Made by a program: the position numbers and the translations under genes | The notes under the pieces: generated by a model | What the model saw: the letters and a program-made list of their open reading frames with translations, nothing else | Told to the model about the DNA's origin: nothing | The model's database searches: none | Assembly: GCA_043807885.1 (NCBI GenBank) | Contig: JAZDFN010000019.1 | Coordinates: 1 to 48,301 of the forward strand | DNA: 48,301 nucleotides | Source of the DNA: a bacterium | Lineage (GTDB): Bacteria; Patescibacteriota; Patescibacteriia; UBA2591; JAZDFN01 | Direction: 5' to 3' | Part shown: one piece after another, positions 38,781-39,661 of the stretch | How positions within the stretch are numbered: position 1 is the stretch's first letter | How the letters are laid out: every line of letters begins with the position of its first letter

Positions 38781-38809
38781 TTGACATCAATTCGTCGGTT
38801 TGCTACAAT
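38781..38809 (+). promoter_or_regulatory. Near-consensus sigma70 promoter
   Basis: TTGACA 38781-38786, exactly 17 nt, TACAAT 38804-38809. The predicted +1 coincides with the A of ATG 38816. Confidence 0.7.
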
Positions 38810-38815
38810 CATATT

Positions 38816-38923
38816 ATGAAAACTTTTGAAATAAACAATAACCAACGGCCAAATTGGCAGTTTAGCAACCGCCAAACTTTTATGTTTGGTTATTTTTATT
38901 TTTCAAAGGTGGCTGATGGATAA
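38816..38923 (+). CDS. Candidate leaderless 35-aa micro-ORF (or the 5' part of a roughly 160-nt small RNA)
   Basis: ATG begins 7 nt after the -10 hexamer. MKTFEINNNQRPNWQFSNRQTFMFGYFYFSKVADG*. Terminator at 38949-38973. Confidence 0.3.
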   Translation: MKTFEINNNQRPNWQFSNRQTFMFGYFYFSKVADG

Positions 38924-38948
38924 TTAGATTAATTTGTCATTATTCAAA

Positions 38949-38973
38949 GGCCGCTCCAATGGGCGGTCTTTTT
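38949..38973 (+). terminator. Intrinsic terminator-like hairpin
   Basis: GGCCGC-TCCAATGG-GCGGTC (one G-U) followed by TTTTT. Confidence 0.5.
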
Positions 38974-39014
38974 AATTAGTTCTTTTCGCTAACAATTAAT
39001 TTTTGGAGGATGTG

Positions 39015-39155: not shown

Positions 39156-39197
39156 GGGCGGCTTAAATTTATTTAAGTCGCCCCTTTTATTTTTTTC
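39156..39197 (+). terminator. Intrinsic terminator
   Basis: GGGCGGCTTAAA-TTTA-TTTAAGTCGCCC (12 bp, one G-U) followed by CTTTTATTTTTTT. Confidence 0.8.
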
Positions 39198-39245
39198 TAA
39201 TCTCTGCTAAGCTGGTAGATATTGAAATTATCGGGGTGTCGCCTG

Positions 39246-39260
39246 TCCGCCTTGGGCGGA
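39246..39260. repeat. GC-rich micro-hairpin inserted in the D-stem of the outer tRNA copy
   Basis: TCCGCC-TTG-GGCGGA. Confidence 0.8.
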
Positions 39261-39306
39261 TATACCGGTAGTACGCATGCATGGGGTGCCCGCCCGCCTT
39301 GACTGC

Positions 39307-39377
39307 CGGGGTGTCGTATACCGGTAGTACGCATGCATGGGGTGCATGTAGACGGAGTTCAATTCTCCGCACCCCGA
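39307..39377 (+). tRNA. tRNA-Pro, anticodon GGG (CCA not encoded)
   Basis: Hand fold. Acceptor CGGGGTG/CACCCCG plus A73. U8. D-arm GTAT-ACCGGTA-GTAC. Anticodon arm CATGC-AT[GGG]GT-GCATG. 4-nt variable loop TAGA. T-arm CGGAG-TTCAATT-CTCCG. The C1-G72/A73 combination is typical of bacterial tRNA-Pro. Confidence 0.85.
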
Positions 39378-39413
39378 TAGTCAAGGCAGTCGGGCGGGCA
39401 TGTAGACCGGGTT

Positions 39414-39443
39414 TCCGCCCGTGGCGGACCCGCCTTGGGCGGG
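39414..39443. repeat. Two adjacent GC-rich micro-hairpins replacing the 5' T-stem of the outer tRNA copy
   Basis: TCCGCC-CGT-GGCGGA (39414-39428) and CCCGCC-TTG-GGCGGG (39429-39443). Confidence 0.8.
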
Positions 39444-39465
39444 CAATTCTCCGCACCCCGAAAAT

Positions 39466-39502
39466 AAAATCGCCTGTCTTGGCGATTTTATTTGTTTTTT
39501 TT
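39466..39502. terminator. Bidirectional terminator shared by the tRNA locus (+) and rpmB (-)
   Basis: AAAATCGCC-TGTCTT-GGCGATTTT followed by ATTTGTTTTTTTT on the plus strand. The 3' arm overlaps the rpmB stop codon. Confidence 0.7.
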
Positions 39503-39661
39503 CAGCGTTTTGAGGCACCGGTTGCAAATTCTCAGTCGTTTCCCGTCGACAGTTTTGGCTTGGAGATTAAGATATTGCTTTTTTCTGGTGGCGATCATGG
39601 AATGGCTGCGGGAAATTTTTATCTGGGGCCCGCGCCGGCAGATATCGCAAACTTTGGACAT
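39488..39661 (-). CDS. rpmB: 50S ribosomal protein L28 (57 aa; absent from the ORF track because it is under 60 aa)
   Basis: Hand translation of the minus strand: MSKVCDICRRGPQIKISRSHSMIATRKKQYLNLQAKTVDGKRLRICNRCLKTLKKNK*. L28 hallmarks M-x-K-x-C, SHS...T(R/K)K, NLQ. Confidence 0.85.
   Translation of the reverse strand: MSKVCDICRRGPQIKISRSHSMIATRKKQYLNLQAKTVDGKRLRICNRCLKTLKKNK

Follow-up and report, generated by a model that had tools for sequence, protein, structure and literature searches.

The genomes of bacteria of the candidate phyla radiation (CPR) are tiny and streamlined, and are thought to be poor in repetitive or selfish DNA. In other reduced genomes such DNA can enter even genes: the Rickettsia palindromic elements (RPE), which Ogata and colleagues are said to have described in 2000, are reportedly selfish palindromic repeats that lie in frame in protein-coding genes and also in RNA genes. 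Miniature inverted-repeat transposable elements (MITEs) measure 50-500 bp and are bordered by target-site duplications, and the GC clusters of yeast mitochondria usually have short stretches of duplicated target on either side. Further organelle genomes harbor repetitive hairpin-forming elements, for example in sponge mitochondria (PMC2800124) and in Volvox (PMC2670323). Bacterial repetitive extragenic palindromes (REP sequences), with the related BIMEs and REPINs, are mobilized by RAYT transposases of the IS200/IS605-like Y1 type (PMC3733652), and transposing micro-introns in tRNA genes of the Thermoproteales (Fujishima et al., 2010) are cited in a later paper (PMC10714607). Here we describe a 30-nt double hairpin (DH) from a 48,301-nt stretch of patescibacterial DNA, contig JAZDFN010000019.1, which in its entirety we call the window. 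It lies, together with a third, single hairpin, in a relic copy of a tRNA-Pro gene. We read these hairpins as copies of a small selfish, non-autonomous palindromic insertion element and not as parts of a working tRNA, and put the probability of this reading at about 0.72.

What sets the hairpins apart from their surroundings? The pattern YCCGCC-N3-GGCGGR has exactly three matches in the whole window, against a chance expectation of 0.04, and none of 100 dinucleotide-preserving shuffles gave three. All three of the near-identical mini-palindromes picked out by an earlier, sequence-only reading of this DNA are thus present, and they are indeed far richer in G+C than the DNA around them, with ~80% for the hairpins and ~83% for the 30-nt pair versus ~46% in the surrounding or average window DNA. 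The scale of 15 nt which that reading had assigned to the unit does not hold, though: the second and third hairpins are one element, the DH, of the form TCCGCC-NRA-GGCGGA-YCCGCC-TYN-GGCGGR. No further site for this unit, even a degenerate one, was found in the window with up to six mismatches allowed in the 24 specified bases, nor in shuffled sequence. Chance GC-rich palindromes or ordinary terminator stems are a negligible explanation. While some single CCGCC/GGCGG hairpins in other loci are terminators within longer, A/T-flanked palindromes (L036, L011, L069), chance is refuted by the shuffles, the hairpins of the window lie inside a tRNA copy and not after a gene, and a real terminator comes next, at 39462-39493.

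The locus itself is a tRNA gene nested within another (Table 1). ARAGORN recognizes a single tRNA in the window, the inner tRNA-Pro(GGG), which differs by 1 nt from the tRNA of a related locus (L012); Rfam detects it above the gathering score of 29 on a 500-nt region, a scan of the whole window at the gathering threshold remaining empty owing to speed filters. Repeat analysis and alignment resolve the outer copy into the sequence of the inner tRNA and three clean insertions, of 19, 109 and 30 nt. The 109-nt insertion (39290-39398), in the 3' strand of the anticodon stem, comprises the intact tRNA and two mutually pairing flanks, and the helix which these form holds a CCCGCC-TTG...GGGCGGG motif. 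The sequence-only reading had seen the hairpins in the D-stem and in place of the 5' strand of the T-stem. Of this the D-arm position stands, but the T-stem strand has not been replaced: the pair is inserted within the T loop, and the strand CCGGG, the most frequent T-stem strand of this tRNA among relatives, is kept. Opposite CTCCG it leaves a C.C mismatch in the outer T stem. No target duplication is seen at the T loop, as an alignment of GGGTT|30 nt|CAATT to the uninterrupted GGGTTCAATT shows. On this evidence, the outer copy appears to be a dead relic, split by the 109-nt insert, mismatched in its T stem and with its D-arm/T-loop elbow destroyed by the hairpin insertions. ARAGORN calls it a tRNA-Pro only after all three insertions have been removed in silico, with the C.C mismatch remaining, and finds no tRNA in it if the two hairpin insertions are kept.

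Table 1. Elements of the nested tRNA-Pro locus in window coordinates, with the matching tRNA fragment of a second genome
Feature	Position	Strand	Sequence or evidence
Terminator-like hairpin closing the upstream unit, left limit of the tRNA transcription unit	39156-39183	+	12-bp stem, then T run
Outer tRNA-Pro, 5' acceptor strand and positions 8-10	39232-39241	+	CGGGGTGTCG; identical to inner 39307-39316
D-arm insertion of 19 nt, CCTG plus hairpin 1	39242-39260	+	between G10 and T11; alignment
Hairpin 1	39246-39260	+	TCCGCCTTGGGCGGA; TCCGCC-TTG-GGCGGA
Outer copy, remaining D arm, 5' strand of anticodon stem, anticodon loop	39261-39289	+	29 nt, 100% identical to inner 39317-39345
5' flank of inserted tRNA unit, 17 nt	39290-39306	+	CCGCCCGCCTTGACTGC; pairs with 39378-39398
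Intact inner tRNA-Pro(GGG), 71 nt, CCA not encoded	39307-39377	+	ARAGORN; Rfam tRNA, 49.3 bits
3' flank of inserted tRNA unit, 21 nt	39378-39398	+	TAGTCAAGGCAGTCGGGCGGG; pairs with 5' flank
Outer copy, 3' strand of anticodon stem, variable loop, T-stem 5' strand CCGGG, T-loop TT	39399-39413	+	alignment
DH of 30 nt, C..G type	39414-39443	+	TCCGCC-CGT-GGCGGA/CCCGCC-TTG-GGCGGG; T loop, TT^CAATT, no target duplication
Hairpin 2	39414-39428	+	TCCGCCCGTGGCGGA; TCCGCC-CGT-GGCGGA
Hairpin 3	39429-39443	+	CCCGCCTTGGGCGGG; CCCGCC-TTG-GGCGGG
Outer copy, remaining T loop, T-stem 3' strand CTCCG, 3' acceptor strand, discriminator	39444-39461	+	equals inner 39360-39377
Terminator-like hairpin (39462-39493) and T run ending the tRNA unit	39462-39503	+	end of rpmB on the opposite strand just past it
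tRNA-Pro 3' fragment with DH in L020			ACCGGGTT[TCCGCCGGAGGCGGA][CCCGCCTTTGGCGGG]CAATTCCCGGCACCCCGA; motif search of independently chosen CPR loci

How far does the element extend beyond this locus? The single-hairpin motif was counted 21 times, versus 0.5 expected, in 861 kb of CPR DNA that had been collected by means of the tRNA and independently of the hairpin. This is a ~40-fold excess of the kind which the sequence-only reading had anticipated for a mobile family, and TCCGCC and CCCGCC are the top two among all GC-rich 6-bp stems with 3-nt loops. A second genome (L020) has a tRNA-Pro 3' fragment whose T loop holds, at the same position, a DH with the same stems and other loop bases, and adjacent hairpin pairs are also found in L030 and, within a ComEC coding region, in L103. 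Scanning metagenomic and viral contigs for TCCGCC-N3-GGCGGA-YCCGCC-N3-GGCGGR with exact stems yielded at least 128 copies on at least 120 metagenome contigs, as well as three viral contigs with a DH. The loops of the copies obey simple rules: the first is N-R-A (A in 95% of copies) and the second T-Y-N (T in 93%), which makes each 15-nt arm the reverse complement of the other, around a conserved core AGGCGGA|TCCGCCT. The second arm closes with T..A in 93 copies, with C..G, the type of the window, in 34, with T..G in four and with C..A in none. To their left the copies adjoin T-rich DNA and to their right A-rich DNA; among the symmetric copies of the T..A type, 86% have T at position -2 and 85% have A at +2. 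The consensus of the insertion site is T-T^A-A, at junctions of T-rich and A-rich sequence.

A purely local origin, in which slippage or duplication of one GC-rich palindrome produced the hairpins with no movement between sites, would account for the clustering of all copies of the window within 200 nt, for the related motif in the flanking helix of the inner tRNA, and for the adjacency of two hairpins, possibly a tandem duplication. Yet it leaves unexplained why a two-arm unit with the same order, loop rules and flank preference recurs at more than 120 unrelated sites, why it occupies the same T-loop position in another genome, and why the motif is so enriched in independently sampled CPR DNA; we regard it as very unlikely. 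The distribution of copies instead suggests that the DH is mobile. Its two arms do not appear to act as one long hairpin, although the copy of the window can fold in this way too: the loop bases of the arms show no covariation, with 13 fully complementary pairs versus 15.5 expected. A preference for pre-existing palindromes as targets was likewise rejected, the complementarity of the flanks being no higher than with shuffled partners. Apparent single hairpins often adjoin a mutated partner arm; copies thus decay, and the single hairpins seen elsewhere are for the most part doubles of which one half has decayed.

In some GC-rich contigs, the DH is part of a larger conserved repeat, GGGCGGAGCT[DH]GAAGCTCCGCCCCTACG in L161, L167, L192, L217 and L234, and CCCTTCGACA[DH]RGCTCAG in L174, L185 and L186; these composite repeats may belong to hosts outside the CPR. 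Another small repeat family, GTCATTCTGAG-hairpin-CGAAGAATC with a CCGCC/GGCGG hairpin, occurs in both orientations in L167, L192 and L227.

Sequence derived from tRNAs holds six of the 128 metagenomic copies, while tRNA genes make up ~0.3% of that DNA. Altogether we know of eight copies embedded in tRNAs (the window, L020, L224, L153, L171 twice, L142 and L202), four of them in the T loop (Pro twice, Leu, Ser), three in the anticodon loop (Leu twice, Tyr) and one in the D loop (Val). All eight follow a loop T, with TT in six (L142 has GT^, L153 TTC^), and all lie in a partial or extra copy which adjoins an intact gene of the same tRNA identity. In L171 (2330-2900, minus strand), three copies of tRNA-Leu(UAA) are arranged in tandem; one is intact, and the other two, one partial and one full-length with paired stems, carry near-identical DHs between anticodon positions 34 and 35, which could reflect gene conversion between the paralogs or a hot spot.

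Might the hairpins and the 109-nt insert be introns, spliced out such that the outer gene yields a working tRNA-Pro, as from the multi-intron tRNA genes of archaea? Non-canonical archaeal introns occupy just such positions in the D arm, anticodon arm and T loop, in-silico removal of all three insertions restores the tRNA-Pro call, and in the full-length tRNA-Leu of L171 the DH falls exactly between two anticodon positions. The host is a bacterium, however, as judged by sigma-70-type promoters, an rpsL-rpsG-fusA context and homologs in Patescibacteria, and we know of no bacterial splicing endonuclease for such introns. The predicted junctions are at the feet of perfect 6-8-bp hairpins and lack the arrangement of 3-nt bulge, 4-bp helix and 3-nt bulge; the restored T stem retains its C.C mismatch; every DH-bearing tRNA copy has an intact twin beside it; and in protein genes the DH is biased to one frame and leaves decayed peptide remnants (see below). 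Splicing is hence highly improbable. The micro-introns of the Thermoproteales share with the DH a length of ~15-30 nt, a spread among tRNAs and positions in the D, anticodon and T arms, but feature a bulge-helix-bulge, are removed by the archaeal splicing endonuclease and leave their host tRNAs functional. The DH, in contrast, has a bacterial host, no bulge-helix-bulge and redundant relics as carriers, and is apparently also translated in protein genes.

In fact, most copies of our insertion element are found in protein genes: 97 of 131 copies (74%) fall within open frames that are 450 nt or longer, where 73 read S-A-x-G-G-S-A-x-G-G, 15 P-P-x-A-D-P-P-x-A-E and nine R-x-x-R-I-R-x-x-R. The host genes are unrelated housekeeping genes, including those for AtpD, AlaRS (one site on two contigs), RecG, UbiB, DnaJ and ComEC. 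Because of the one-frame bias and the decayed peptide remnants, the DH in protein genes is probably translated, not spliced. Avoidance of stop codons was considered as proof of translation and discarded; the test is indecisive because T at the first loop base is depleted alike in coding and non-coding copies (2.7% vs 5.8%).

The most telling case is AtpD, the β subunit of ATP synthase, in which a DH is inserted between VDVHF and NNLP (L219). Among 120 close homologs, all from Patescibacteria where named, three genes have a DH at this site, two have decayed remnants of it (P0144, P0146), and the rest are empty. The filled genes are scattered on a neighbor-joining tree, each with an empty sister, at amino-acid identities of 94% (L219/P0121) and 96% (P0123/P0139), a pattern that requires either that this one site was filled more than once or that it was precisely emptied. 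The presence/absence polymorphism which the sequence-only reading expected of a mobile element is thereby seen at this site, between genes 94-96% identical. On the DNA level, the exact 30-nt unit follows TTT in both readable filled genes, one being of the T..A and one of the C..G type, and a comparison of filled and empty AtpD alleles shows no target duplication. A second hot spot in AtpD is located directly after the start codon (Met1), where five more homologs carry a DH. The L219 protein has an additional low-complexity insertion of ~50 residues, SAASGGTPPFKGGGAS..., around query residues 40-95, where its 94%-identical sister has an unrelated segment of ~20 residues; it may stem from other decayed insertion elements. 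Three predicted viral contigs from IMG/VR (L124, L125, L126) contain the DH, at least two of them inside long open reading frames (ORFs), and viruses could be a route for its spread between hosts.

How does the DH compare to the systems described so far? In its behavior it seems closest to the RPE and to the organellar GC clusters and hairpin repeats, in its possible mechanism to REP/RAYT, and in its tRNA context to the micro-introns of the Thermoproteales. Like the RPE, it is palindromic and non-autonomous, preserves the frame in unrelated housekeeping genes, enters RNA genes too, is present or absent among close relatives, and resides in bacteria with reduced genomes. It is set apart by its length of 30 nt as opposed to ~100-150 bp, by its hosts, CPR bacteria instead of Rickettsiales, by a peptide that is a 10-residue Gly/Ser/Ala loop and not an amphipathic segment, and, presumably, by an unrelated sequence. 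With the yeast mitochondrial GC clusters and the organellar hairpin repeats it shares the nature of a short GC-rich palindrome in an AT-richer genome, the occurrence in intergenic DNA, RNA genes and coding regions, the polymorphism among relatives and an insertion mechanism that is at most partly known; these repeats have organellar hosts and unrelated sequences, and the duplicated target bases usual for the yeast clusters have no counterpart in the DH. The arms of the DH would correspond to the terminal inverted repeats of a MITE joined without cargo, and it is non-autonomous as well, but it is only 30 nt long, lacks a target duplication, and no parent transposon with these ends was found.

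The likeness to REP sequences, which the sequence-only reading had named together with that to mobile GC clusters, is less close. While the GC-cluster-like colonization of the outer tRNA copy is borne out, the comparison with REP extends only to short GC-rich hairpins, often in inverted pairs and without target-site duplication. The conserved GTAG/CGTC head of REP is absent from the flank logos of 131 copies, which read T-T-T to the left of the unit and A-A-A to its right. REP sequences are extragenic by definition, whereas the DH is mostly found in long open frames, its position within AtpD, AlaRS and RecG having been verified; and they reach tens to hundreds of copies per genome, whereas the DH is sparse in the genome fragments covered, with a handful in the 861 kb of CPR DNA. 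No RAYT gene was found near any copy in the 0.8 Mb of DNA around them. The absence of target duplication, the hairpin arms and the insertion beside a short T-rich motif nevertheless resemble hairpins handled by Y1/HUH enzymes, and plausibly the handling of single-stranded hairpins by a trans-acting enzyme is the best available mechanistic analogy. By our account, the DH differs from all of these systems in its size, sequence, host group and lack of target duplication, and searching full texts for its nucleotide and peptide strings and for keywords retrieved no published account of a 30-nt DH.

Our observations suggest the following scenario. The DH would land without target duplication at T-T^A-A sites, inserted, and perhaps also precisely removed, by a trans-acting enzyme that recognizes hairpins in the manner of the single-strand transposases of IS200/IS605 or RAYT; recombination between paralogs may contribute to its spread, as for the two tRNA-Leu copies of L171. 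In the window, a relic tRNA gene would have accumulated insertions that would be lethal in a working one, tolerated because the embedded inner gene supplies the function. Hairpin 1, whose loop (TTG) conforms to the TYN type of second arms in double hairpins, would most likely be one half of a DH, left by slippage between its internal direct repeats. Elsewhere, the DH persists where it does no harm: in proteins it occupies surface loops, in frame, and among tRNAs the loops of redundant copies.

Several points weigh against this reading. There is no transposase and no other recurrent gene in the 0.8 Mb around the copies: clustering of 1,396 ORFs from the DH-bearing loci yielded housekeeping families only, on which the idea of a linked transposase was dropped, and the 1.6 Mb of fetched loci contain no autonomous parent element. 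Copies are sparse, with ~1 per 50-150 kb in general and ~1 per 48 kb in the window, where the mismatch-tolerant scan found none beyond the tRNA relic. That the stems of the metagenome sample are perfect and invariant is a consequence of the pattern searched for, which fixed them. All the evidence for presence and absence comes from AtpD genes. The bias toward the S-A-x-G-G frame could partly stem from the target, as TT^AA is barred from the phase that makes a TAA codon, beside selection. The full-length tRNA-Leu of L171, with its DH and well-paired stems, leaves some room for removal at the RNA level. And finally, the D-arm hairpin is single and accompanied by the four extra bases CCTG, a form that in its exact shape is absent from all 248 fetched loci, so that the membership of hairpin 1 in the family is less certain.

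The nesting of the tRNA genes is a phenomenon of its own. A 23-nt core of this tRNA-Pro is kept in at least 120 CPR genomes, and at least eight of the ~119 examined CPR genomes carrying the tRNA have a tRNA within a tRNA (window 39232-39461, L012, L024, L030, L073, L098, L099 and L121); the others examined have a plain gene. In the nested loci, a complete tRNA-Pro(GGG), with an inverted repeat of 10-15 bp extending its acceptor helix, interrupts an older tRNA-Pro gene, whose 5' piece precedes it and whose 3' piece follows. These outer pieces are variously truncated, mismatched and multilayered, with several layers of relic pieces in L030 and L121, and the tRNA in the window and that in L030 have homologous flanks, in which compensatory changes are seen. 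The sequences suggest that a unit carrying a tRNA has repeatedly inserted into resident tRNA-Pro genes, which it would thereby replace. A phage origin of this unit was considered and dropped, as viral contigs of IMG/VR contain neither the core of the tRNA nor the 3' half. Searches of the full-text literature by sequence, peptide and keyword brought up no account of nested CPR tRNAs, and this arrangement may be more novel than the hairpins themselves. Unrelated hairpins are inserted in outer pieces as well, CCTGCCTGCCGGTAGGCAGG before the T loop in L098 and, in L030, one of 35 nt in the outermost piece, within its D loop; several kinds of palindromic insertion thus seem to gather in relic tRNA copies.

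The nests raise the question of whether the outer scaffold and its hairpins could be functional RNA modules that stabilize the embedded tRNA, guide its processing or bind a protein. The 230-nt unit of the window folds far better than shuffled sequence (-132.8 kcal/mol, z = -5.8), nesting recurs in at least eight CPR genomes, the flanking helix shared by the window and L030 shows compensatory changes, and a hairpin at the T loop of the outer piece is found in the window, L020 and L098. The low folding energy, however, follows automatically from nested duplication and palindromes; most of the genomes examined manage with a plain gene; the outer pieces are truncated, mismatched and multilayered in the manner of relics; and the identical 30-nt unit occurs in unrelated protein genes and other tRNA relics, to which such a role is inapplicable. 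A functional module is therefore an unlikely alternative to an insertion element in a relic. In Rfam, the hairpins, outer pieces and spacers of the window and the eight related nested loci match no non-tRNA family; elsewhere in these sequences only an rRNA fragment and a T-box leader exceed the curated cut-off, and further matches near the tRNA region of the window are weak and far below the gathering scores.

What follows if the hairpins are indeed mobile? Occurring in essential genes (ATP synthase, aminoacyl-tRNA synthetases, RecG) and in tRNA relics, and gained or lost between relatives of 94-96% identity, the DH would testify to an ongoing small-scale turnover of CPR genomes, in which essential single-copy tRNA genes, too, appear to be replaced and to remain as nested relics. 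In practice, it could be a ready marker for tracking strains in metagenomes, as well as a source of annotation errors in the form of odd Gly/Ser-rich protein inserts, broken tRNA calls and false small ORFs, and it offers a natural experiment on the tolerance of proteins to 10-residue loops. An enzyme that handles so minimal a substrate, if found, could represent a novel activity for inserting DNA, one whose recognition unit is very small. A more far-reaching picture, which we put forward only tentatively and with more doubt than confidence, is that of two interacting elements. The DH would be an active, ultra-small mobile element of the CPR, the smallest known, inserting and perhaps being precisely removed at T-T^A-A without target duplication via an enzyme yet to be named, and would repeatedly remodel surface loops of essential proteins and disable spare tRNA genes. 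The tRNA-Pro-carrying units would be the second element, which brings along a replacement for the gene that it breaks, explaining the Russian-doll relics in at least eight lineages.

As to the host, ComEC, ndk, rpmB, an S2P protease and rpsL, with their homologs, place the window in the Patescibacteria/CPR, near Magasanikbacteria and Kuenenbacteria. The nearest relatives available (S2P identity 93% and 65%) have no tRNA at this position upstream of rpmB. When 39462-39520 of the window is compared with L001 and L002, synteny breaks exactly at the tRNA nest: these loci have a gene for a 137-aa protein and no tRNA upstream of rpmB, whereas the window has ComEC, a protein of the MBL fold and ndk there, as well as the nest. 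A synteny comparison through loci fetched by the neighboring S2P protease was thus ruled out, the closest relatives being without a tRNA there. A scan for consensus promoters directly upstream of the outer copy (39184-39231) found none. Further upstream, at 38781-38990, a strong sigma-70-like promoter (TTGACA-17-TACAAT) precedes ~170 nt with two terminator-like hairpins and without a long ORF; the region has no match in Rfam, and may encode a small RNA or a leader.

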